A stretch of DNA of 64,000 bases from a virus (Duplodnaviria; Heunggongvirae; Uroviricota; Caudoviricetes): IMG/VR virus record IMGVR_UViG_3300014205_000201. One strand, given 5' to 3'. Position 1 is the stretch's first letter. Each line of letters opens with the position of its first letter. Both the position numbers and the translations under genes were made by a program. Shown in pieces: positions 1 to 53,547 of this stretch. The notes under the pieces were generated by a model that was not told the DNA's origin, searched no databases, and saw only the letters and a list, made by a program, of their open reading frames with translations.

Positions 1-3000
1 CTAAGATTGCCTGAAGTGTTAAGATGCGTTTCTTCCAGAAGAACCGAATTAGTATAAGACTTTTTGGATTGAGGCAGTTTAATATCGAACTCTGAAATTT
101 TAGCGCCCGGTACTTCCATACCAGTTTCAAACCTAAATTCTGTAACAGCGTTTTCAACGTTTGATTCTCCTGTTGAGATTTTAATAATACGCTTATTTGT
201 TCCAGCGCCGACTTCTTTGATGGCTTCAAAAGTGTTTCCTCTAGCTGCCTCCAAGTATGGATCAGCAATTCTTGTTTCTGAGAATTGTTCACCTAATTTT
301 TGCTCTAAGACAGCTTTGCGTAGAGCTTTAATATCATTGGTTGCAATTAAGCTAGTTACTTCAGAGGTTTTATTATCCCCAAATGGTCTGCCTAAGACTT
401 CGCCTAATGTTTCTGTACCTTCAAGGTTACTTCTACCGATTTCTATTTGTTGTTCAGTTAATTTCTGCGATGCAATCTTTTGTGCATAACTTAACTCGCC
501 TTTAAGATTGAAAGCTCCTGTTTTTTTTGGCTCAAATACTTTTATTTCATCAAATGAAAAGGCTCGATTACCACCACCAATTATTGCTGAGTCAGCTTCA
601 GGAGTTGAAAGAAAAGCCGCCTCAGTTTCCCGTATCTTCGCAGAAGATACCCGTTCAGTCATATCAATCAAGTTAGGTTTAGACTGAGTTCTAACTTCTG
701 GACTCTTAACTATACCAACTTCGGTTCCAACATCAACACGACCATAAGTAGTAACTTCGCCAGCTTCAGGACTAACATAACGAACATTAACACGACCTAT
801 TTCTTTAGGCAAAACATCTAATGATGTAACAACTTTACCATTTACTGTTTTTGTCGTTATAACAACATTATTATTTTCTGTCCATAAATGAAGTTTATTC
901 TGATTTTTTAGTTCACCTAACGCATAATCAACAGGAGAACCAGACAATTCAACATTTTCTCCGTAATTTGGTACTGTTAATTCTTCTCCAGTTTTAATAA
1001 TTCTATTAGTAACAAATTTTGTACGCATATTTTCAAGGTTAGCATCTGGCAAATATATTTTACGTACCGTATTTGGTTCGTTACTCCAATTCATACCACG
1101 CGCATTTTTAGATTCCACATTTTGAATGGGTGCTCTAACAATAGAACCTTCTGCTAAATTGGTCTTAGCGAAAATACCTATGCCATGTATTTCACTATCT
1201 TTGACAGCGCCAATATGATCTTTTGCCAATAAATTACCATAAGGATCGACTTCTGGAATTATTCTACCAGAAGCATCAACGCCAGCTTCAGTTTCAAACA
1301 TTGGCTTCTGATAAGTCGTAATCTTCTGTTCGCCCGATATATCCATAACTCTACCAAGCGCTAAATCATCTATACTTTTAAATTTCATAGCTTCAGCATA
1401 AGTAACCCGTTTATTAGCAACATCAACGGTAGTTAAGCGAACAGTTTTTTCGCGGCTAGCTCTAATATTAGATAAATTAGCTTCAGCCATAACATCAGTA
1501 ACAGAAGATGCGCCTTTTATTTTACCCTCATAAGGTACATCAACAATACCCTTTCTAGGTAAAATCTCAATGTTACCTTTATTAATTGGTATTTGTTCAA
1601 CTGGAGAACGCATAACAACTTCATTAAGTTCTAGCACATCACCTTTAACACCGCCAATATGAAATTTTTCTACAGCAAACTTTGGCATATGAGGCATTAA
1701 CTTTCCGCCAACTTCACCTAATCCACTAAATCCGGCGGCGAATAAAGCATTCTGCGCTACACCTTCAGGAGTAACCTGACCTGTTTGAATATATTCAAAT
1801 CCAGCACCCGCTGGAGTCATGGAAGCCGTTTGTGCACCAACTCTTCCTAAAGAGGCACCAATAACCTGTTTTGTAGATGAAGCTGCTAAATAGATTTTTT
1901 CTCCAGCAACCGCAGTTCTTACGCCTATCTGTTCTCCACCCTTAGCTATTGTAAAACCAGCAACTTTAGCGCCGGTTTGACCACCATACTTAGATAGACC
2001 CTGCAGTGTTGCTTCACCTAAACCAGCAAATATGACACCAGTTGCACCAGCCTCAATTGCTTCTTGAGGAGTTAACAGACTTTTAGAAATGTCGCCATTC
2101 CATTCCCCAGCATTGTAATAAGTGGTGCCAGTCTTCATAACTTGACCAAGACCAATACCAATAGTAGCACCTTTAGCTACCGCTGTGGCTCCCACAAATG
2201 GAGCAGTTATAGCGGCACCAAGAATTTCTAACGCTAATACTCTCTGCTCATTCGAGCGAATAACAGGTTTAACACCAAAAGGCCCCTCAATATTAATATT
2301 AGAAAACGTAAACGTACTATTCTTGTTTACTTCTTGCTGAGGAGTTGGTTTCAACGTAAACTCTAAAGCGGCACCACTTGATGATTTCGGAATATTAGTA
2401 TTAGGAATATAAGTAATATTTGGAACTTCCTTAATCGACTCAATCTGCTCCGGTTTAATACCAACAGGCACCGCATATTTACCAGAAAACCGCGTAAAAT
2501 CTTGACCTGACGCTTTAGAAGCAGCATTATAAAAACTGATGCTTTCTTTAAATGAAGAAACCTCAGATGGAGCCATATACTGAACCGTCTGAGTTTTAGG
2601 ATTATAACCAGTAACTAACGAACCTTGAGGAATCTGCTTAAGCAACTCAGGATTTTGCTGCTGAATCTGCTTAGTTAAAACATTAGACACCATTTCTTTA
2701 CGTTCATAAGTAGTATAATAAATCGTTTGACCCGCAGGTACAGTGCTTTTGTATTGTGCGGCGGCTTGCGCTGTTTTCTGTTGGATTTCTGGGCGAGTAT
2801 AATAGGGGGAGGGTTGAGGGGATTGCCTTATTGAAGCTTTATATTGTTCAGCGGCTTGCGCTGTTTTCTGTTGGATTTCTGGACGAGTATAATAGGGGGA
2901 GGGTTGCTGATTTCGTGCCTGTGCAGCAGCTATCAACTGATTTTGTCTCGCTATAGCTGCGTTATAATCCGCCAGGCTAATTTGCCCAGAAGCGTATGCT

Positions 3001-3079: not shown

Positions 3080-3685
3080 TTAACTTTTACCTTTGACATG
3101 CGCACATAATTTTAATATCAATTTCAAAGTACGCAATGCCTCCATTGGTGAAGCTTTGCTAACCCCTAATTTACGTGCCTCAAAAACAAAAGGATACTCC
3201 ACAACCGAACAGTATTTTTTACTACGAACAAGCAAGTCTAGCCCGAACTTAAACCCATAAACATCAATCGGATACAACAAAAACACCTGGCGCTTCACCA
3301 GGATAAAACCACTCATATTATCCTTAATCTCAAGACGAAATAATACTTGAGCAAATAAACAGTAAACTCGGCTTATCATTTCTCGACTAAAAGAATCCTG
3401 TGTGCCGCCGCCTTTGATATAGCGTGAACCAATAACAATGTCATGGCCATTCCTAGCTAACCATAACATTTCAGAGATATATTTTGGGTTGTGGCTTCCG
3501 TCTGAATCGCAAACTAAAATGTATTCGCCCTTAGATCTTTTAACCCCACACATAACAGCATACCCCAATCCTATCTCAGATTGAATCAATATCTCAAAAG
3601 GCTCAGAAACACATCGACTAATTTCAGCCATCAATGTCGGAAGAAAAGGCTCTGACCCGAAGCATGGAATAATAATAGAAAGCAT
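3080..3685 (-). CDS. family-2 glycosyltransferase (dolichyl-phosphate sugar transferase-like)
   Basis: N-term IIIPCFG..., DxD-like ILVCDSDGSH, GSRY; GT-A fold signature. Confidence 0.65.
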   Translation of the reverse strand: MLSIIIPCFGSEPFLPTLMAEISRCVSEPFEILIQSEIGLGYAVMCGVKRSKGEYILVCDSDGSHNPKYISEMLWLARNGHDIVIGSRYIKGGGTQDSFSREMISRVYCLFAQVLFRLEIKDNMSGFILVKRQVFLLYPIDVYGFKFGLDLLVRSKKYCSVVEYPFVFEARKLGVSKASPMEALRTLKLILKLCAHVKGKS

Positions 3686-7735: not shown

Positions 7736-8025
7736 TTTTCGACACCAGCTACATTAGATTGATTTTTATTTGGACTTAAATAGAAAACATATATGGAAGC
7801 TTCATTTGGATATTCACAGAACATTAATTCTTCTAATTGACTCCTGAGAGTACATAACGCTTTGTATGCTAACTCAGCCTTTTTTTCTCCTGCTTTTGCT
7901 CTCGAATATTTATTATGGTTTTCATTATGTATATCACACATTCTTGAAACTAACTTATCATTTAACTCATACAAGTTTAACCCAATTTTCTTATAGTAAT
8001 CCATTGTAAACTTTCCTTTTTGCAT
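7732..8025 (-). CDS. hypothetical protein (97 aa)
   Basis: SD AAGGGAG 8 nt upstream; IR motif just upstream. Confidence 0.5.
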   Translation of the reverse strand: MQKGKFTMDYYKKIGLNLYELNDKLVSRMCDIHNENHNKYSRAKAGEKKAELAYKALCTLRSQLEELMFCEYPNEASIYVFYLSPNKNQSNVAGVEK

Positions 8026-8880: not shown

Positions 8881-9183
8881 TTATCGTTTAAAGAAACGAC
8901 TCTTATTCAATATTAAATACGTAACGGCAAAGGTAGCTATCGAACAACAAATAACCGATTCAACACCAACCCAAAGACCACCAACAGCAACCGTTCTAAA
9001 ATCGCTAAGTGCCACCGTCATATTATACGCAGAACCAAACGCCTGGTTGGTAATATCGAATATTGCAGTTTCAGTATAGAGAACTATAGCAAGTTGACCA
9101 ATACCCCAACCGTAACCATTTATGATTAGCAGCAGTAAACAAACGGCAACTAAATTATTCTTTAACTTAGAGTTCATCATCAT
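8881..9183 (-). CDS. small membrane protein (100 aa)
   Basis: N-terminal TM; ATGA overlap with the upstream gene. Confidence 0.45.
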   Translation of the reverse strand: MMMNSKLKNNLVAVCLLLLIINGYGWGIGQLAIVLYTETAIFDITNQAFGSAYNMTVALSDFRTVAVGGLWVGVESVICCSIATFAVTYLILNKSRFFKR

Positions 9184-9419
9184 TCACCAGTTTTGTTGTA
9201 ACTGTCAATCTTTCTTTCATGCCACCAAATATAGAAGCCTAAACTAATAGAAATAATTACAGCGCCAAAAATTATGTAAGGCAAAATTGATATAAGATTT
9301 AGTGGCCCAGGGCAACCTTGCCAAGTAGTACAGCTATACTTAGCTGGATTAAAGAAGCGGTCTATCTCTTCCCACCAAGTTAAGTTTGCTAAATGCTGAT
9401 GCCAAGCTTCACTCAACAT
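9180..9419 (-). CDS. small membrane protein (79 aa)
   Basis: TM helix; Trp-rich. Confidence 0.45.
   Translation of the reverse strand: MLSEAWHQHLANLTWWEEIDRFFNPAKYSCTTWQGCPGPLNLISILPYIIFGAVIISISLGFYIWWHERKIDSYNKTGE
9184..9208. promoter_or_regulatory. IR motif copy (tcaccagttttgttgtaactgtcaa)
   Basis: abuts the start codon at 9183. Confidence 0.5.
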
Positions 9420-12042: not shown

Positions 12043-12235
12043 ACTCTTTACCGGTACGTTTACCAGGTAATGTCTTCTGATATGCTAAGTCAGCTTGAGA
12101 ATTAAACAACTCAGGAAAATGTTTAGTGCCAAATGTAGAATTATATATAGCCACAATCTCTATGAAACTGTGGTCTTGTTTTTCCCAGAGTTTAATTGCT
12201 GTTATTCTAGCTTGCCGGTTAGTATCTTCACTCAT
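11993..12235 (-). CDS. hypothetical protein (80 aa)
   Basis: overlaps its neighbour; the start is uncertain. Confidence 0.35.
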   Translation of the reverse strand: MSEDTNRQARITAIKLWEKQDHSFIEIVAIYNSTFGTKHFPELFNSQADLAYQKTLPGKRTGKEFAKDLQDIFLGDGFFG

Positions 12236-12720
12236 TATTTTTCTTCCTCTTTATTACTGACTTTTGGGACACATTTGGCAGTTGATGTTACCCAAAGCTT
12301 ATTCTTGTTTTTATTCTTCATGAACTTTTCACGCATCGTAACAACAGCCTTCATATCTCGATGGATCTTAGCCCAAGACTCGTTATGGCATGCAGACGAA
12401 TTTGAACCGCTAATGTCATAATTCTTCTCATCACTAAAGCAATAGATAGAATGTTTACCCTCTGTTTCAGCCCAATGCAATGTTGCATCGCAGAACCATA
12501 TATCCCACTCAGGAAAAGTGTGGGCTTTATAATAATCTTTGAAAGGCATATTAACGAATACTTTACCACAGGTTTTGCAGAACACTAAATAGTGTTTACC
12601 CTCCATGGCTTGCTCAATTAGTTTTTCCATCTCAGGTTGCTTATTGCTAAGAATGAAAGCAGCCATCTCGTTTTGGTTAGCTCGTTTTAAGTCTGTGATT
12701 AGTTTATCTTTTGCGCTCAT
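12235..12720 (-). CDS. hypothetical protein with CxxC (161 aa)
   Basis: SD cctcc(rc) at 12731-12735 and an IR motif upstream. Confidence 0.5.
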   Translation of the reverse strand: MSAKDKLITDLKRANQNEMAAFILSNKQPEMEKLIEQAMEGKHYLVFCKTCGKVFVNMPFKDYYKAHTFPEWDIWFCDATLHWAETEGKHSIYCFSDEKNYDISGSNSSACHNESWAKIHRDMKAVVTMREKFMKNKNKNKLWVTSTAKCVPKVSNKEEEK

Positions 12721-12739
12721 TGTTTCTTTTCCTCCACAC

Positions 12740-12764
12740 TACCAGATGGATACAAACTGTCAAA
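12740..12764. promoter_or_regulatory. IR motif copy (taccagatggatacaaactgtcaaa)
   Basis: SD at 12731-12735, then the start at 12720. Confidence 0.5.
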
Positions 12765-12784
12765 TATTAAAAATGCTAAAATCA

Positions 12785-13033
12785 TTACCATTCAACCTCG
12801 ATTTTCTCAATTGTAGTAATAGCAGAAATAAAACATATTGCGCTAGGCAGAGTTAATATCAAAGCGGTTTGGTTCAATTTATCTGATAAACCTATAGAGG
12901 CTTTAGATTGAGTAAAGCCACTTCCGCTAATTGTATTATAGTCAGCAATCCAAACTGCCGAAATTGCAAGCGCTAACACTATCCCAAATAGTATCAGAGA
13001 GATACATAGTAATATCAAAGTTATTTTCTTCAT
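12785..13033 (-). CDS. small membrane protein (82 aa)
   Basis: TM; SD + IR motif upstream. Confidence 0.45.
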   Translation of the reverse strand: MKKITLILLCISLILFGIVLALAISAVWIADYNTISGSGFTQSKASIGLSDKLNQTALILTLPSAICFISAITTIEKIEVEW

Positions 13034-20241: not shown

Positions 20242-20742
20242 ATGACATATTTTGATATTATTCGGCTAGCCGCCCTAATTGCAGTAATTGGGTATGCCGC
20301 CTGGCAAGATCACACAGTAACCATAAAGTTTGAACATAATGGTAAAATGGTTGAAGGTGGAGAAGTTAGAAATAAAACATGGCTTTATGCTCCTTTTGGG
20401 TTATGTTTAACATTTATTGCAATTTATCTTAATCCAGAAACCGCTTTAATGTCATTTCTCAGTATGGGTGCAACAATTGTTTTAGTATTAATTCTTGATC
20501 GCGTCGGCGGCATGGGAGGCGCTGATGGTAAAGCATTTCTTACAATAGCAGCCAGTATGCCACTTACACCCTTCAATATACAATTGCCAATAATGATGTA
20601 TCCGCTAGCCGTGATTTTAGTGTCAGCATTGCTGTCATTTGGGGTTTCATCAATAAAGCAGAAAAATGTGCCTATGCGTGATCGTCATGTACGATTTTTG
20701 CCTTACGTGTTTGTCAGTTTATTCATAGCATTGCTGATATGA
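20242..20742 (+). CDS. polytopic membrane protein; candidate A24-family prepilin/preflagellin peptidase (TadV/CpaA or FlaK-like)
   Basis: GGMGGADGKAFL resembles the GxGD/GGAD catalytic-Asp motif; an earlier Asp at WQDHT; size about 166 aa with 5 TM. Confidence 0.35.
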   Translation: MTYFDIIRLAALIAVIGYAAWQDHTVTIKFEHNGKMVEGGEVRNKTWLYAPFGLCLTFIAIYLNPETALMSFLSMGATIVLVLILDRVGGMGGADGKAFLTIAASMPLTPFNIQLPIMMYPLAVILVSALLSFGVSSIKQKNVPMRDRHVRFLPYVFVSLFIALLI

Positions 20743-21753: not shown

Positions 21754-22140
21754 ATGAGCACCTTTCAGAATGCATCACCAGAACCACGAAAAGTCTTCCT
21801 CGACCTACTCATGAAAAACGCAGACTTCTTAGGCCAATTAATGGCAATGAGCAAATACCCAGAAGCACTAGGACAAATGCTAAGAATTGCTACCGATGTA
21901 AGATTTTTGGCAACTAAAGAAAAAATTGAACCGCTATACAACAGATTAGAATATTGGGTTTATGTAAGCACCAAATATACAAATAGAGAACTGCAAGCAG
22001 CAAACCTAGAATTAAAAGGTATATTACAATCAGAGTTCTTCAGTGAACTACAACTAGGTATTATACCCACAAGTACACTAGCCACAGAGAAAAACGTACC
22101 ATCCCAAAAAGCATTAGGCGAATCAAGCAGCCATATCTAA
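21754..22140 (+). CDS. hypothetical protein (128 aa)
   Basis: BRE/TATA-like ccttttaaat about 25-35 nt upstream of the ATG. Confidence 0.5.
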   Translation: MSTFQNASPEPRKVFLDLLMKNADFLGQLMAMSKYPEALGQMLRIATDVRFLATKEKIEPLYNRLEYWVYVSTKYTNRELQAANLELKGILQSEFFSELQLGIIPTSTLATEKNVPSQKALGESSSHI

Positions 22141-22152
22141 TCCCAATCAGGC

Positions 22153-22947
22153 TTGTTATGGCAAGCCTTATATTTCTACTTTAACAAAACATATAATATG
22201 CCAATTATAAAAAATCAACGCATAGATGAAGTCCCAACAGAAGATTGGCTAACATACATAGACCTAGCGTCAAAAATAGATTATTCACAAGCCAAACAAA
22301 TACCTCCCTTTCAAAGATGGCTTTGTGCAGTATTAGCCATAGACTGGTTAACTGGAAAAAGAATAAATGAAATACTACGCTTAAAACGCAAAGACATTAC
22401 ATTCACAAAAAGCGATATAAAAATAAAATTTATGGTAGGAAAAAAACGAGCTAGAGGAAGCCCAATAGAATTACAACCTTACCAAAAAATAAGAACAATT
22501 GAACACAAAGCTATACCATACATAATCAGCTATTTAGATGATTATGACAAAAGATTAGAAAGCGATCCTGAAATAGCCCAATACATCAAAAATATGGGCA
22601 ACTATATTTTTCCCTGTCCATCTAAGCCCAGAACTAAAGTTGTTAAAACAAAATTTACAAATGGCAAAGGAGAACAAGAAGTTAGAGCTTATACCTATGA
22701 ACAGATAGGTGGATACATGAAAGAAGAAAACGCATTCTTCTGGCTACAAAAAATTAACAACCAGTTACCTCAAGAACGCCGGATTTACTTTCACTATGGG
22801 CGGCACTCAATTGGGTTACATATGGCATACCAAGGAAAAAGCCCGTACAAGATAGCGGAAATATTAGATGAAACAGTTGATGCTGCATTACAGTACACTA
22901 AGCATTCATCTGGTTACGATAATGATTGGCGAAATGAAAAGGAGTAA
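22153..22947 (+). CDS. tyrosine recombinase/integrase-like protein (264 aa)
   Basis: box I Arg (GKRINEILRLKRKDI); HYGRHS (HxxR); catalytic Tyr context LQYTKH. Confidence 0.55.
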   Translation: MLWQALYFYFNKTYNMPIIKNQRIDEVPTEDWLTYIDLASKIDYSQAKQIPPFQRWLCAVLAIDWLTGKRINEILRLKRKDITFTKSDIKIKFMVGKKRARGSPIELQPYQKIRTIEHKAIPYIISYLDDYDKRLESDPEIAQYIKNMGNYIFPCPSKPRTKVVKTKFTNGKGEQEVRAYTYEQIGGYMKEENAFFWLQKINNQLPQERRIYFHYGRHSIGLHMAYQGKSPYKIAEILDETVDAALQYTKHSSGYDNDWRNEKE

Positions 22948-22952
22948 AACTA

Positions 22953-23966
22953 ATGTCATCACCCATAAATGTCGATGTAAAAATACAAACTGAATTAAGA
23001 AAACAAAAAATTGCCAAATTACTAAAAACAGCAACACAAATGGGGGTAGTTCATACAGGATGGTCAGCTATAGATTATATGCGATATGCAGCATTGCACC
23101 ATGGGTGGGAATCAACCTGTATTTCAGGATCTAAAGGCACACTAAAATCAAACCTACTCTTACAACACGGATTAGCCTTATGGCAAGATTTCGATAAAGT
23201 CCTTGAACATTTTATTACAGATCAAGACAGACTCTTCGAGTTAATCCAATATGCCATAGATAACAAAAAATGTTTACCCTGGGTAGGCGTAGATGACATA
23301 GCAATGATTTTCCCAAAAAGCCTATACTTCAGTAAACGAAAACTATATAGCGAATTACAAAGCTGCTGGGAAGCAGTCCGCACAGTTTTCGCAAACTTCG
23401 AGTTTAGCTGCGTCATTAAAAGAAAAGTCGCTAGCTTTATACTAGAAGACATAACCTCCGACATAAGATGTTACAAACCTGTTTTCTTAGATCATGCAGA
23501 TGGAACTAGCGATTGCATAAAAAGTCACTATAGTTATAGACGCTGGCTCTGGTTAACAAACTATAAAGATCCAACCAGAGATTTAGCAAAATTAATCACA
23601 GTTGAAGAGATACCTTTTCCAGCTACTCCCGAAGCATTGATAATTGATCCTGAGTTAAAGTCAGGCACGTTCTATTCAGGAGGCAAAACTTACAAGGGTG
23701 AGGAGTTCTTTAGGGAACATGCATGTTTAGCGGGCATCGACACCACGCGCTTTAAAAAGTATTGGGAATCAAGATTAGATATAGCTGAGAAGGGCTTCAG
23801 TAGATTAACTGCTATCATGGCCGAAGATAAAGAGAAGATCAGTAAACAAACTAAACTATCTAAAGAAGATAAAGCGGAGATTAATAGAGTCAATGCTTTA
23901 AAACGATGGCACCCCGAAGAAGTACACATTCCAGAGTCTGAGTACGATAAACGTAAACCTGCATGA
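22953..23966 (+). CDS. hypothetical protein (337 aa)
   Basis: CLPWVGVDDIAMIF is Walker-B-like; no clear P-loop. Confidence 0.5.
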   Translation: MSSPINVDVKIQTELRKQKIAKLLKTATQMGVVHTGWSAIDYMRYAALHHGWESTCISGSKGTLKSNLLLQHGLALWQDFDKVLEHFITDQDRLFELIQYAIDNKKCLPWVGVDDIAMIFPKSLYFSKRKLYSELQSCWEAVRTVFANFEFSCVIKRKVASFILEDITSDIRCYKPVFLDHADGTSDCIKSHYSYRRWLWLTNYKDPTRDLAKLITVEEIPFPATPEALIIDPELKSGTFYSGGKTYKGEEFFREHACLAGIDTTRFKKYWESRLDIAEKGFSRLTAIMAEDKEKISKQTKLSKEDKAEINRVNALKRWHPEEVHIPESEYDKRKPA

Positions 23967-24020
23967 TCTCATTTTACGGATTTCGTTTTTAAAATGCGAA
24001 ATGCGAAACGACATATAGTG

Positions 24021-24044
24021 TAATTATATAATATATTATATATG
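24021..24044. repeat. AT-only tract taattatataatatattatatatg
   Basis: adjacent to the iteron hub. Confidence 0.6.
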
Positions 24045-24084
24045 TTAGCATCTGTTCGGCAGCCGTCCCGTCTGCATGTATGTC

Positions 24085-24106
24085 TTGTTAAACTATACTT
24101 TAACAA
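24085..24106. promoter_or_regulatory. perfect palindrome TTGTTAAA-N6-TTTAACAA
   Basis: the same 8-mer arms recur inverted at 24239-24255 and as TTGTTAAC at 24303. Confidence 0.55.
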
Positions 24107-24132
24107 AGGCTTAATGGGGTGTTTCCAACAAC

Positions 24133-24157
24133 TGCCAGTTCTGGGCAAACTGTCAGC
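24133..24157. promoter_or_regulatory. copy of the pervasive IR motif (ctgccagttctgggcaaactgtcag)
   Basis: CCAGTT-N8-AACTGTCAG. Confidence 0.5.
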
Positions 24158-24179
24158 GCATGGACTTATCCATACATAT

Positions 24180-24310
24180 GGGGTACTGACGGATACTGAA
24201 AAACCATAGCCCCCATGGGGTACTGGGGGATACTGTTTTTTAACAATTTGTTAAATAGGGGTACTTGCGGTTTAAAGATAATCCTTAAATCTATTCGGGG
24301 TACTTGTTAA
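24180..24310. repeat. four iterons GGGGTACT(G/T) at 24180, 24217, 24258 and 24297 (about 40-bp spacing); two carry GGATACTG
   Basis: candidate origin or regulatory hub. Confidence 0.6.
24239..24255. promoter_or_regulatory. perfect palindrome TTTAACAA-T-TTGTTAAA
   Basis: operator-like. Confidence 0.55.
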
Positions 24311-24313
24311 CAT

Positions 24314-24454
24314 ATGCCAACAAGTGACCCAGCCAAGCTAGCTGAAAAACGTAGGCGCAATAATGCGACTTATTACGCTAAGCATCATGGCGGCCAAGCT
24401 TCTCAATCGGAAGACTCGGAAGAAGATAGTGTTGCCGAGTTTTTCAGCAATTAA
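24314..24454 (+). CDS. 46-aa basic/acidic mini-protein (MPTSDPAKLAEKRRRNNATYYAKHHGG...)
   Basis: hand-translated; sits inside the iteron hub. Confidence 0.4.
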   Translation: MPTSDPAKLAEKRRRNNATYYAKHHGGQASQSEDSEEDSVAEFFSN

Positions 24455-24455
24455 A

Positions 24456-24496
24456 AACTTAGTAATTTATTGCTAAGTTTCCCCCCTATTTTTATC
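24456..24496 (+). terminator. 7-bp stem hairpin AACTTAG-N10-CTAAGTT followed by TCCCCCCTATTTTTATC
   Basis: intrinsic-terminator-like. Confidence 0.45.
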
Positions 24497-24651
24497 TTAA
24501 ATTTAGATAACGTGCTCTTAGGGTTATTGATGGTTAGCGCCGGTTTGTTTGTAGTTTTTACAATAGAGCTTTAACTTAGTTGTATTTTTTGGGCTGTTTA
24601 GGTAGCAAGGTTTTAAATACTCTATTGTACAATTTGTTCAATGTTAACAAG

Positions 24652-24662
24652 CAAACGGAGAC
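24652..24662 (+). promoter_or_regulatory. CAAACGGAGAC box, copy 2, before the ATG at 24672
   Basis: the extended GGAGACTAAAC also occurs at the hammerhead 2 cleavage product. Confidence 0.45.
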
Positions 24663-24671
24663 TAAACAATC

Positions 24672-25132: not shown

Positions 25133-25175
25133 CTGACAATTATCTAAGAACTGGCGAATAATGGAGAAATAAAAA

Positions 25176-33690: not shown

Positions 33691-34019
33691 TGCCTAACAC
33701 CTATGTTAAAGTTATCCGTGATTGGAAAGCATCCGGTGGTCCTGATGTCTATTGTCCTGTTGATGTAGCCACTGGTAAAATGTATGTGGGTTTAAGTCTT
33801 ATCGGTTTTGTTCCTAAAGGTGGGATAATTGTGGGGGAGTTTGATGAAAAGACCGATACGCTCACGTTAAATAAACCAAAAGAAACAGTGGCGGGGGTAG
33901 TTGAGAAGAGGGACAACACCCTAAGTCAAAGGGAAGGCGTGGGTTCGACTCCCATCCCCCGACCATCTTCGATTAACAATCAGAAACCAACAGTTAGTCA
34001 ACGACCACAAAATATATAA
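33687..34019 (+). CDS. hypothetical protein (110 aa); its 3' third overlaps a tRNA-like element
   Basis: SD GGAGGAT. Confidence 0.4.
   Translation: MMPNTYVKVIRDWKASGGPDVYCPVDVATGKMYVGLSLIGFVPKGGIIVGEFDEKTDTLTLNKPKETVAGVVEKRDNTLSQREGVGSTPIPRPSSINNQKPTVSQRPQNI
33891..33963 (+). tRNA. tRNA-Asp(GUC)-like 73-nt element (degenerate): full cloverleaf by standard numbering but with G1-A72 and A27-A43 mismatches and A33 instead of U33
   Basis: Acceptor GCGGGGG / CCCCCGA. D arm GTTG-AGAAGAGGGA-CAAC. Anticodon arm CCCT-AAGTCAA-AGGG. T arm GTGGG-TTCGACT-CCCAT. Discriminator C then CA. Confidence 0.3.
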
Positions 34020-52587: not shown

Positions 52588-53547
52588 TTACTCATACAAA
52601 CTACCCAACTGCTTCAAATCACTTTTAGGTTTAGATAACTCCGCAAGATAACTGTTAAATCCCTGGATAGCTAACGTGTTTTGCTCTAAGATTTTAGCCA
52701 TACCAGCCTTCTCAAGCTCACTCTGAGTAAACGCTTTATTCACAGCATCAACTAACCTTTCAAACTTTGTAACAATATCCGGTTTAATAACATGAACCTC
52801 TAAACCTCTTTTATGACTAATATCACCCGTAACTATAACAGGCATACCAAGTTCCTTATAAGTGGTAATCATCTTATACGGCAAAGGGCGATCATAATTA
52901 TAAACATCATGAGCATCATACCAAACCACATCGTTCAAAAAAGTCTGACTTATAACTAAATCCGCAATTAACCCAGAAGCAATAAACGCATTATACAATA
53001 ATTGCTTAACTAACCCTATCGGTTCAGTAGCTTTATTTGGATTAACTAAATGAACCCGAACTCTACCATTCACCCACCACTGAATCCTACCCACCGTGTA
53101 CTGCTCTTTATCCCAAATCAAATTATGATTAACATTCTTACTCAACCGCCAACCAACCTCAACAGCCAACCCCGTAACCTCACCATAAAACTTCACCCTA
53201 CTCAAACAATCAGGAACACCAACCTCCGCAAACACCGCATGCTGACTATCAGGCTTTGAACAAACACGATTATATGAGCCTCGCCCATTTTGAGGTAAGG
53301 AACGGATGTCGGTTTTAAATTCGCTAGCATACCGCCATAATAGTTCTTTCTTTTCTTTATAAGGGATCTTTAATTCGACTGCTGCTTTCTTGAGGTATCC
53401 ACGTTTCCGTATGGTAGGATTGTCACGTAGCCATGCAAAAAGTTGGTACTTTAAAGGTTCATCAGAAAGTTTTCCTACCTTGCCCAGAACCTTACCTTCC
53501 TTACCTAGAACCTTACCTGAACTATTGGGATTTGGGTTGATAGCCAT
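52588..53547 (-). CDS. hypothetical protein (319 aa), possibly replication-associated; no motif recognised
   Basis: largest ORF of the module bounded by the two paralogous integrases. Confidence 0.45.
   Translation of the reverse strand: MAINPNPNSSGKVLGKEGKVLGKVGKLSDEPLKYQLFAWLRDNPTIRKRGYLKKAAVELKIPYKEKKELLWRYASEFKTDIRSLPQNGRGSYNRVCSKPDSQHAVFAEVGVPDCLSRVKFYGEVTGLAVEVGWRLSKNVNHNLIWDKEQYTVGRIQWWVNGRVRVHLVNPNKATEPIGLVKQLLYNAFIASGLIADLVISQTFLNDVVWYDAHDVYNYDRPLPYKMITTYKELGMPVIVTGDISHKRGLEVHVIKPDIVTKFERLVDAVNKAFTQSELEKAGMAKILEQNTLAIQGFNSYLAELSKPKSDLKQLGSLYE

Follow-up and report, generated by a model that had tools for sequence, protein, structure and literature searches.

A putative two-layered control region behind a 'DnaA-like' ATPase gene of an uncultivated virus- or plasmid-like element: a conserved candidate origin site and an apparently exchangeable repeat cassette

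Introduction

What is the function of the intergenic stretch of about 700 bp that follows a 'DnaA-like' ATPase gene in the virus record IMGVR_UViG_3300014205_000201: does it serve as a replication origin, as a regulatory switch, or as both? The stretch (positions 23967-24671) was studied within a window of 64,000 nt, which is the whole DNA analysed and to which all positions refer, and which is part of the 87-kb metagenomic contig Ga0378408_0000526 (JGI 3300037067). It was compared with about 24 distinct related metagenomic loci, designated by L-numbers. A first-pass annotation had described it as the longest non-coding stretch and as a candidate origin or master regulatory region, in which four iterons would be served by the adjacent 337-amino-acid (aa) protein. 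The individual features listed there are all present and occur far above chance, and the 802-nt gap is the largest between open reading frames (ORFs) of at least 60 aa in the window, because the apparent 2.2-kb gap at 490-2755 is occupied by a 932-aa open frame (window 1-2755, minus strand) that runs off the left end. This left-end frame is missing from the program-made ORF list, so that region 1-2755 looks non-coding. As a general description, 'master regulatory region or origin' can be retained; the proposed architecture of iterons and an adjacent protein serving them is not supported by the comparison of loci.

The stretch, which belongs to an uncultivated virus- or plasmid-like element, is best explained as an intergenic control region that from its sequence appears to consist of two evolutionary layers. 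Layer 1 (23993-24106) would be a single-copy cis-acting site and the likely origin, and Layer 2 (24130-24454) an exchangeable, autoregulated operator cassette composed of a repeat array and the gene of a mini-protein. We assign this reading as a whole a probability of about 0.5. In the following, the two layers are described together with the explanations that compete for them, and the region is then placed beside known systems.

The conserved site downstream of the ATPase gene

The control region starts at the stop codon of the ATPase gene, and the parts of Layer 1 follow in this order:

22953-23966, plus strand: ATPase gene, encoding a RecA-fold P-loop ATPase of 337 aa
23993-24006, plus strand: tandem 7-mer AATGCGA x2; relatives have an equivalent pair of other sequence at the same position
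24009-24049, no strand assigned: AT box, a diverged copy of the family consensus ACATATA..ATAAGTAATTAC..TATA
24059-24075, plus strand: small hairpin GCAG-ccgtcccgt-CTGC bearing the family-wide GCC(N)CC box
24085-24106, no strand assigned: palindrome TTGTTAAA-CTATAC-TTTAACAA

The series of tandem 7-mer, AT box, GCCNCC box and palindrome with a spacer of about 6 bp was found in nearly all of the approximately 24 fetched loci (about 20 distinct loci), regardless of whether the next gene belongs to a repeat array with mini-gene, encodes a recombinase (L007, L008, L010) or encodes a LAGLIDADG protein (L013, L015, L020). The tandem 7-mer, the A/T tract and the spaced palindrome, which had been treated as accessories of the iterons, are thus, together with the GCCNCC box, the conserved, ATPase-linked parts of the region. 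The tandem word comprises 7-8 nt and is element-specific (AATGCGA in the window, ATGCTCA in L034, ACGTTCA in L014, AAGGGTC in L033). The AT box is conserved in sequence across the family, beyond mere AT-richness; its pure A/T run measures 23 bp (24021-24043) and not 24 bp as first reported. The GCC(N)CC box lies about 20 nt past the AT box, and in most loci an inverted repeat with arms of 6-11 bp, a spacer of about 6 bp and an element-specific sequence is located 15-25 nt beyond it, examples being TTACCTATTA-ttcaag-TAATAGGTAA in L035 and TTTACATTT-ctatgc-AAATGTAAA in L031. The window palindrome at 24085-24106 has the same sequence in the three closest relatives, with the centre CTATAC or its reverse complement GTATAG, and in other relatives this position is taken by a palindrome whose arms differ and whose spacer measures about 6 bp.

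A profile covering the segment from the AT box to the GCC box gave one match per locus in 443 kb. When each of 15 loci was left out of the profile in turn, the top match was in every case situated directly behind the ATPase gene, 12 of these matches having E<0.01; the AT box of the window was the top-scoring position in the 64 kb. Just past the AT box and the GCC box there is an insertion hot spot for tyrosine recombinase genes (L007, L008, L010, L012, L019, L034) and for LAGLIDADG homing endonuclease genes (L013, L015/L016, L020/L021).

Judged by these properties, the AT box is a candidate for the DNA-unwinding element of an origin, or for a unique promoter. Layer 1 is tentatively regarded as the best origin candidate of the element, since its layout matches those of the SNJ2 and pRN1 origins, two archaeal origins that were defined by experiment and are associated with different proteins; origin function is quite possible but far from assured. 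The alternatives are a unique promoter-operator, a recombinase site and a packaging site, of which the latter two appear less likely than an origin.

According to the promoter-operator alternative, Layer 1 would combine the terminator of the ATPase gene with a strong, unusual promoter and its operator (the palindrome and the 7-mers), which would drive downstream early or regulatory genes; no part of the control region would be involved in replication, and all of it would be a transcriptional switch. The TATA-like octamers within the AT box are consistent with such a transcriptional switch, as are a T-run 30-40 nt further on in several relatives, the resemblance of the element's other promoters to B recognition element (BRE)/TATA boxes, the fact that in L004 and L037 the mini-gene appears to have TTTAACAA as its TATA box, and the example of SSV1, in which a single control region brings together the F55 sites and the promoters T5, T6, Tind and Tlys. 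However, the AT box sequence occurs once per locus and differs from the other promoters of the element, and it stays by the ATPase stop codon even where the next gene has a TATA box of its own (L007, L008, L010); moreover, the T-run would in several loci stop any transcript after about 35 nt, and a conserved RNA structure is lacking. A switch without a replication role is therefore considered unlikely.

The alternative of a recombinase site concerns primarily the palindrome at 24085-24106, which might represent the core site of the adjacent tyrosine recombinase, used for dif/lox-like resolution or for integration, so that the region would in part be a recombination locus. Core sites of tyrosine recombinases share the geometry of this palindrome, with arms of 8-10 bp, a centre of 6 bp and an int gene nearby. 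The recombinase gene is located 1.1 kb upstream, the three closest relatives, which share the int-ATPase arrangement, have an identical palindrome, and in other relatives a recombinase gene is inserted right beside Layer 1. The enzyme is a possible user of the palindrome. On the other hand, palindromes of the same geometry and other sequence are present where the recombinase gene is elsewhere or not seen, with no covariation shown; an exact copy of the palindrome was not found in 185,579 GTDB species genomes, nor was an attB site; and a dimeric regulator would account for the palindrome equally well. This explanation is held to be improbable. An earlier assumption that the TTGTTAAA palindrome is limited to the clade with an upstream int gene proved wrong, as palindromes of the same geometry with other sequences occur family-wide.

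Three further ideas on Layer 1 were dropped. A small RNA starting from the AT box, with a C-rich loop resembling an anti-Shine-Dalgarno sequence, was abandoned as there is no consensus structure, and the AT box was rejected as a rolling-circle nick hairpin because it folds no better than shuffled sequences and no nuclease gene was found among the 107 scanned ORFs of the window at the thresholds used. A sigma-70 interpretation, considered for both the AT box and the pervasive inverted repeat described below, fails owing to poor matches to the -10 region; the count of sigma-70 promoter-like sequences (40 versus a mean of 29.8 in shuffled sequences, standard deviation 5.1) is in modest excess only.

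The repeat array and the mini-gene

Layer 2 and the segment up to the 24672 operon contain the following features:

24130-24165, plus strand: inverted-repeat copy AACTGCCAGTT..AAACTGTCAG followed by Shine-Dalgarno (SD)-like ATGGAC, a genome-wide motif
24180-24305, plus strand: array of six GGRTACT sites, starting at 24180, 24191, 24217, 24227, 24258 and 24297
24210-24229, no strand assigned: palindrome CCCCCATGGGG, hairpin CCCCCA..TGGGGG, bordered by runs A5 and T6
24239-24255, no strand assigned: second palindrome TTTAACAA-T-TTGTTAAA, located between sites 4 and 5 of the array
24271-24291, plus strand: putative TATA-like boxes of the mini-gene, TTTAAAGA (24271-24278) and CTTAAATC, as read from the sequence
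24314-24454, plus strand: mini-gene, 46 aa; N-terminal part basic (KRRRNNATYYAKHH), C-terminal tail acidic with aromatic residues at its end
24455-24495, plus strand: AT-rich hairpin AAACTTAGTAAT/ATTGCTAAGTTT, then CCCCCCTATTTTTAT, terminator-like
24556-24671, plus strand: promoter region of the 24672 operon, with a 13-nt inverted repeat (24556-24568 / 24620-24632), TATA-like TTTTAAAT (24611-24618), ATGTTAACAAG (24641-24651) and SD sequence GGAG (24657-24660)

The four repeats reported initially were recovered as GGGGTACT at 24180, 24217, 24258 and 24297 with spacings of 37, 41 and 39 bp, and the second half-sites noted in two of them correspond to GGATACTG at 24191 and GGGATACTG at 24227, behind the first two copies. 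Sites 1/2 and 3/4 thus form tandem pairs, 10-11 bp apart. GGGGTACT occurs six times in the window versus 0.87 expected, a number reached in 0 of 100 shuffles, and six GGRTACT sites within 140 bp have a Poisson probability of about 1.5e-13 relative to the rest of the window. Outside the array, GGRTACT is confined to two isolated copies in coding sequence, with none at 24500-24671. Likewise, every locus with an array carries a short repeat of its own, which lies between Layer 1 and the mini-gene and is restricted to that spot. A core of the CCCCATGGGG type recurs in the arrays of L011, L030, L037 and L022, and the shorter CCCATGG is found twice in L005.

The two reported palindromes (24085-24106 and 24239-24255) and the half-site (TTGTTAAC at 24304-24311) were likewise verified; the reverse complement of the latter lies within ATGTTAACAAG at 24641-24651. 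Half-sites of the type TTGTTAAM, which include those of both palindromes, number six in 576 bp, compared to about 0.11 expected (P about 2e-9). The copy of the pervasive inverted-repeat motif is real (24130-24156), and the hairpin behind the mini-gene, which proper spans 24455-24480 and is followed by CCCCCCTATTTTTAT, has the terminator-like character ascribed to it; its C-run and T-run are kept in L027. The pervasive motif copy is followed by a tiny upstream ORF of 3-4 codons (ATG GGG TAC TGA, window 24178-24189) that extends into the first repeat and equivalents of which are present in relatives with other repeats (L027, about 3482-3496; L028, about 7920-7934).

The 46-aa mini-ORF is a genuine, conserved gene with conservation at the protein level, because the conserved residues often use different codons (9 of 24 in L031 versus L037, 12 of 19 in L005 versus L022). 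Its protein has 11 homologues in the databases, and counterparts of the gene are located in the window, L004, L005/L017, L011, L022, L027, L031 and L037, all versions combining a basic N-terminal half with an acidic tail that ends in aromatic residues. Neither of the folds suggested for it was substantiated: for a ribbon-helix-helix (RHH) protein there is no Pfam match, and hydrophobic residues are too few for a globular fold, whereas the likeness to a basic leucine zipper (bZIP) protein is limited to the basic region as seen by eye and again lacks a Pfam match. No Pfam or PHROG family matched the mini-proteins at E<0.01, nor did any Pfam family at a relaxed threshold, the best matches being noise.

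The location of the repeats relative to the mini-gene promoter is similar in nearly all cassettes. In the window, 4 nt separate the end of site 5 from TTTAAAGA, and site 6 is placed between the TATA-like box and the ATG of the mini-gene. As read from the sequence, the last repeat precedes a TATA-like octamer of the mini-gene by no more than 13 nt in 7 of 8 cassettes. The array is therefore best explained as the putative operator set of the mini-protein, which is the most likely binder of the repeats.

Exchange of the cassette and covariation of its parts

The most telling comparison is that with L027 (Ga0378408_0090775), which stems from the same JGI sample (3300037067) as the contig of the window. 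The encoded ATPases share 79%, the Int proteins 82% and the p128 proteins (see below) 70% identity, and the two DNAs are homologous across Layer 1 with the palindrome and across the pervasive inverted repeat. This homology is lost at about 24165 and regained where the mini-gene ends. In between, the repeats (GGGGTACT in the window, TGTCTTAA in L027) are unrelated and so are the mini-proteins, which cannot be aligned. Layer 2 thus behaves as an exchangeable cassette. Four repeat types were distinguished, each associated with its own mini-protein subtype in two independent loci:

GGGGTACT: mini-protein MPT.DP.K..YY..H (window, L011)
GGGGTAGGACA: mini-protein ..KLREKWRRNKA.. (L031, L037)
TGTCTTAA: mini-protein ..ERRKETN.RYY.. 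(L027, L004)
GGACA: mini-protein MP...KHS.E.R.. (L005, L022)

In a permutation test on a small sample of eight loci, with repeat classes assigned by the author's inspection, repeat type was associated with mini-protein identity (p=0.009) and not significantly with ATPase identity (p=0.09). For L037, which was fetched via its mini-protein, GGTACT-type (GGGGTACT) repeats had been predicted beforehand from the nearness of its mini-protein to that of the window. This prediction failed, L037 having GGGGTAGGACA repeats as in L031, the locus with the same mini-protein subtype; the pairing of repeat and mini-protein was therefore recognised after the fact.

These data bear directly on the assumption that the repeats are served by the neighbouring ATPase. 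The closest pair of ATPases, that of the window and L027, is accompanied by unrelated repeats, and in about half of the family loci neither an array nor a mini-gene is present. The evidence argues against recognition of these repeats by the ATPase.

With the ATPase set aside, the mini-protein could still make the array a classical origin, by acting as origin-binding specificity factor in the manner of lambda O with its four iterons or of a plasmid Rep protein. Bound to six sites, it would recruit the ATPase or the host replisome through its acidic, aromatic tail, the AT box would melt, and exchange of the cassette would affect the specificity of replication, or incompatibility, and not immunity. 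Tails of this kind, acidic and with aromatic residues at the end, are typical of recruitment peptides, and lambdoid origins likewise swap binder and sites together, just as binder and sites are exchanged together here. In addition, the repeat cluster is unique in the genome and close to both an AT-rich box and a 'DnaA-like' ATPase gene, and there is no other recognisable replication protein in the window. The AT-rich region that adjoins iteron origins has its counterpart in the 23-bp A/T run of the AT box, 130 bp from the first repeat. Nevertheless, the array cannot be the essential origin of the family, since about half of the loci do without array and mini-gene and yet keep the ATPase gene and Layer 1. 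Iteron origins possess at least three phased direct repeats of about 17-22 bp, whereas the sites of the array are 8-9 bp long at spacings of 37, 41 and 39 bp. The array adjoins the TATA-like box of the mini-gene as an operator would, and a 46-aa protein without a fold is an improbable initiator. For these reasons an origin at the array is doubtful.

The gene order of ATPase, repeats and small basic protein would also fit a partition system, in which the single-copy, element-specific repeat cluster is a centromere-like site, the mini-protein an adaptor and the ATPase the motor. This is contradicted by the fold of the ATPase, which is RecA/Zot-like and not that of ParA/MinD, and whose Walker A motif reads GxKGxxKS, not KGGxxGK[ST]. 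As the cassette is moreover missing in half of the loci that keep the ATPase, a partition site is very improbable.

The operator-cassette reading of Layer 2 is in line with the coexistence of different cassettes in relatives from the same sample, which is the pattern expected for heteroimmune or compatible variants. Such an exchange hints at selection in favour of different types of immunity or incompatibility where elements coexist.

Proposed mode of action and points against it

In the mechanism that we propose, the conserved machinery of the element would act at Layer 1, the AT box being the unwinding element and the variable repeats the specificity sites. The 46-aa protein would bind the six GGRTACT sites and control its own promoter, autoregulation being suggested by the position of one site 4 nt upstream of the TATA-like box and of another between the box and the start codon. 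It would thereby gate transcription, and possibly origin activity, through the control region, and the cassette would constitute a specificity determinant (immunity or incompatibility), analogous to F55 of SSV1 and its repeats. By analogy with origins of the lambda O or plasmid-iteron type, the cassette may also set the specificity of replication. In a more far-reaching combination, the 46-aa protein would represent a novel type of minimal DNA binder with sequence specificity, a lone basic helix (bZIP-like with no zipper) bound to 8-bp tandem and inverted sites, its tail would recruit the ATPase to the AT box, and the cassette would determine the specificity of a modular origin-recognition system. 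We consider this a long shot; if true, it would be a previously undescribed modular origin-recognition system for large spindle-virus-like elements.

Several observations weigh against the two-layer reading. With respect to Layer 1, the AT box of the window is diverged and a weak match to the profile (E=0.23), the held-out loci L037 and L038 score at E=0.5-1.5, the AT box has no significant hairpin potential (DNA folds in five loci, z=-0.24 to +1.23), the Layer 1 region shows no conserved or consensus RNA structure, and the region after ORF286 of ATV has no comparable layout. The GC-skew analysis proposed as a check of the origin was carried out and revealed a local cumulative G-C minimum at 23630, which in itself speaks for an origin but is shallow and confounded by gene strand. 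With respect to Layer 2, no DNA-binding domain can be recognised in the mini-protein, whose hydrophobic residues are too few for a folded RHH protein, arrays with no detectable mini-gene are present in L028 and L033, and the true binder of the repeats could be encoded elsewhere. Finally, the replication role of the ATPase group is unproven even in SSV1 and ATV, and the only clues to the host domain are the lineage of the ATPase, an Ssb-like OB protein of archaeal type and the BRE/TATA-like boxes.

The region nonetheless has properties that make it useful. How spindle-shaped and related archaeal viruses replicate, and which role their 'DnaA-like' ATPase plays, is unsettled, and the family offers a fixed single-copy DNA element tied to the ATPase gene in about 20 divergent genomes. 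Layer 1 represents a defined fragment for read-depth or replication assays, and the swapped repeat/mini-protein cassettes form a natural set from which short DNA (e.g. GGGGTACTGACGGATACTG) and peptide reagents for binding tests can be derived.

The ATPase and its upstream neighbours

The ATPase is of the type represented by ORF286 of ATV and by PHROG 11254 and 5484 ('DnaA-like'). Its 76 homologues are known from metagenomes only, the sources including termite gut, sediments and landfill. The Walker A motif is deviant (GxKGxxKS, G59-x-K-G-x-x-K65-S) and, like Walker B (DD114-115), invariant in the alignment. An AlphaFold model (pLDDT, the predicted local distance difference test score, 88.6) matched RecA, the N-domain of Zot and FlaI in the PDB, and ORF286 of ATV was the top match among viral models in BFVD (E=3e-12). 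Of 32 family members tested, all matched phrog_11254 (best E=5e-14) and 31 matched phrog_5484, the 'DnaA-like replication initiation protein' (best E=1e-14), a name that ORF286 of ATV also bears in RefSeq. Pfam gave nothing for the family at a relaxed threshold, including no Orc/Cdc6 match. In a relaxed tblastn search (limit 10), the ATPase matched ATV, ATV2 and SMV3/4 (bicaudaviruses and monocaudaviruses) besides one unrelated Microviridae record (E=0.5). At a limit of 1e-3 the same search of phages returned none, yet ORF286 of ATV appeared with E=5e-4 at limit 10, and strict-limit negatives from this search are to be taken with care. No match was obtained by tblastn against plasmids. The corresponding ATPase of SSV1, B251, is a core gene product 'implicated in replication and packaging', without proof (PMC9608457).

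Two context genes precede the ATPase gene:

21754-22140, plus strand: p128, a four-helix-bundle protein with a conserved disordered tail
22153-22947, plus strand: int, a short tyrosine recombinase (Pfam Phage_integrase, 8.6e-8)

In most family loci the p128 gene lies just upstream of the ATPase gene or of int and ATPase, and the tail of its product, which is conserved and predicted to be disordered, reads FSEL.hGIIPTSTLP...SSRI. Modelling of p128 as a candidate DNA binder was uninformative, as it yielded a four-helix bundle with no significant fold match.

The element family

Based on the profile, fold and tblastn similarity of its ATPase, the element most likely represents a large virus or plasmid that belongs to the spindle-virus ATPase lineage, and it is probably archaeal. 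Among 107 scanned ORFs of the window, members of the following families were identified: tyrosine recombinase, Band-7, Peptidase_A24, an Ssb-like OB protein (archaeal type), methyltransferases, homing endonucleases, glycosyltransferases and RNA ligase. None of these ORFs belonged to polymerase, primase, helicase, Rep nuclease, terminase, portal or capsid families at the thresholds used (E<=0.01 to 1e-4), which highly divergent nucleases might escape. Many genes of the window are preceded by boxes of the form (A/C)(C/G)(C/G)TTTTAAAT, which we infer to be BRE/TATA-like, and by GGAG Shine-Dalgarno sequences. The 52588-53547 protein had been named as a further possible ligand of the control region; no evidence tying it to this region emerged.

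No member of the family, whose contigs reach 87 kb, was found in the phage, plasmid, IMG/VR or species-genome collections that were searched. Megablast revealed no nucleotide relatives of the region among phages, and scans of IMG/VR and of 185,579 GTDB species genomes gave no match to the ATPase, the type-B mini-protein or the 22-bp palindrome. Contigs of L034 (the P0033 locus) of about 24 kb were seen again in more than 50 sequencing runs and may represent a complete small genome, which would help to define the core gene set and to map the origin.

Some further features of the element deserve mention. An Rfam search found tRNA only, namely a tRNA-Asp(GTC) gene inside the element (window 33891-33964; ARAGORN; Rfam 31 bits). 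A small membrane protein of the Peptidase_A24 type (prepilin-peptidase-like), which is unusual for a virus or plasmid, is common to the family (window 20242-20742; L004 6811-7275; L033 9476-9901; L035 11332-11817). The pervasive motif, CTGACAGTT-N7-10-AACTGGTGAAT-n-ATGGAG, precedes at least 15 genes and combines an inverted repeat with an SD-like ATGGAG, the true start following 8-11 nt on. It could be an RNA hairpin masking the ribosome-binding site or the site of a global regulator. Copies were recorded as follows:

25133-25165, plus strand; 9150-9192, minus strand; 15019, minus strand; 8055, minus strand
upstream regions within 12235-12785, upstream of 38030, and upstream of 55532
24130-24165, in the control region
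25813, 27900, 28345 and 28593, all minus strand, opposing the annotated gene direction

Comparison with known systems

With regard to Layer 2, the closest parallel is the F55 (Tlys) system of SSV1. F55, a protein of 55 aa, binds an 11-nt motif that occurs repeatedly in its own promoter and in those next to it, and the region of its sites was once proposed as the SSV1 origin (PMC9608457). In both cases, a very small protein gene stands beside several short motifs on its own promoter (here, sites at the TATA-like box of the mini-gene), and all of this is found in one control region of a virus with a 'DnaA-like' ATPase. The F55 repeats, however, are distributed over the Tlys, Tind, T5 and T6 promoters, whereas those of the window are not on the promoter of the neighbouring operon; only in L004 are there repeats on a neighbouring promoter, two copies being located just before the next BRE/TATA box. 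The two motifs are unrelated in sequence, and F55 is described as a transcription factor with demonstrated binding, while the mini-protein is a predicted binder with no recognisable fold and nothing annotated that resembles it. Lambdoid immunity and origin modules and the iteron/Rep determinants of plasmids resemble Layer 2 in that sites and binder are swapped as a cassette between close, coexisting elements, but they differ in protein type, site length, spacing and probably host domain, and the cassette is optional here.

With regard to Layer 1, the SNJ2 and pRN1 replicons are instructive. The Rep-Arvir origin of SNJ2 lies directly downstream of the replication gene and consists of a conserved element and a non-conserved inverted repeat (PMC13107129), and the orf56/orf904 replicon of pRN1 comprises a small repressor, a rep gene and an essential downstream region (PMC4234260). 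The region described here shares with them a conserved element and a non-conserved inverted repeat directly 3' of a replication-associated gene, as well as a small regulator in the module. It differs in that the gene encodes a RecA-fold ATPase, not a nuclease of the Rep_trans/HUH type or a primase-polymerase with a superfamily 3 (SF3) helicase, in that the AT box forms no stable hairpin, and in that no nuclease was found in the window. The variable inverted repeat beside a conserved element, which is characteristic of rolling-circle origins such as those of SNJ2 and pT181, is present in most loci; the HUH or Rep_trans nuclease that goes with it was not found among the 107 scanned ORFs at the thresholds used. 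An archaeal chromosomal origin (oriC) would adjoin an orc1/cdc6 gene for an AAA+ protein; the ATPase here is devoid of a Pfam Orc/Cdc6 match and has a RecA/Zot-like fold. To ORF286 of ATV, SMV3/4 and the PHROG 11254/5484 group it is linked by profile, fold and tblastn similarity, but identity over the P-loop core is only about 22-24%, Walker A is deviant here, and ATV is without a comparable downstream region. The layers of this control region resemble known kinds of system, and they are found in an undescribed element family.

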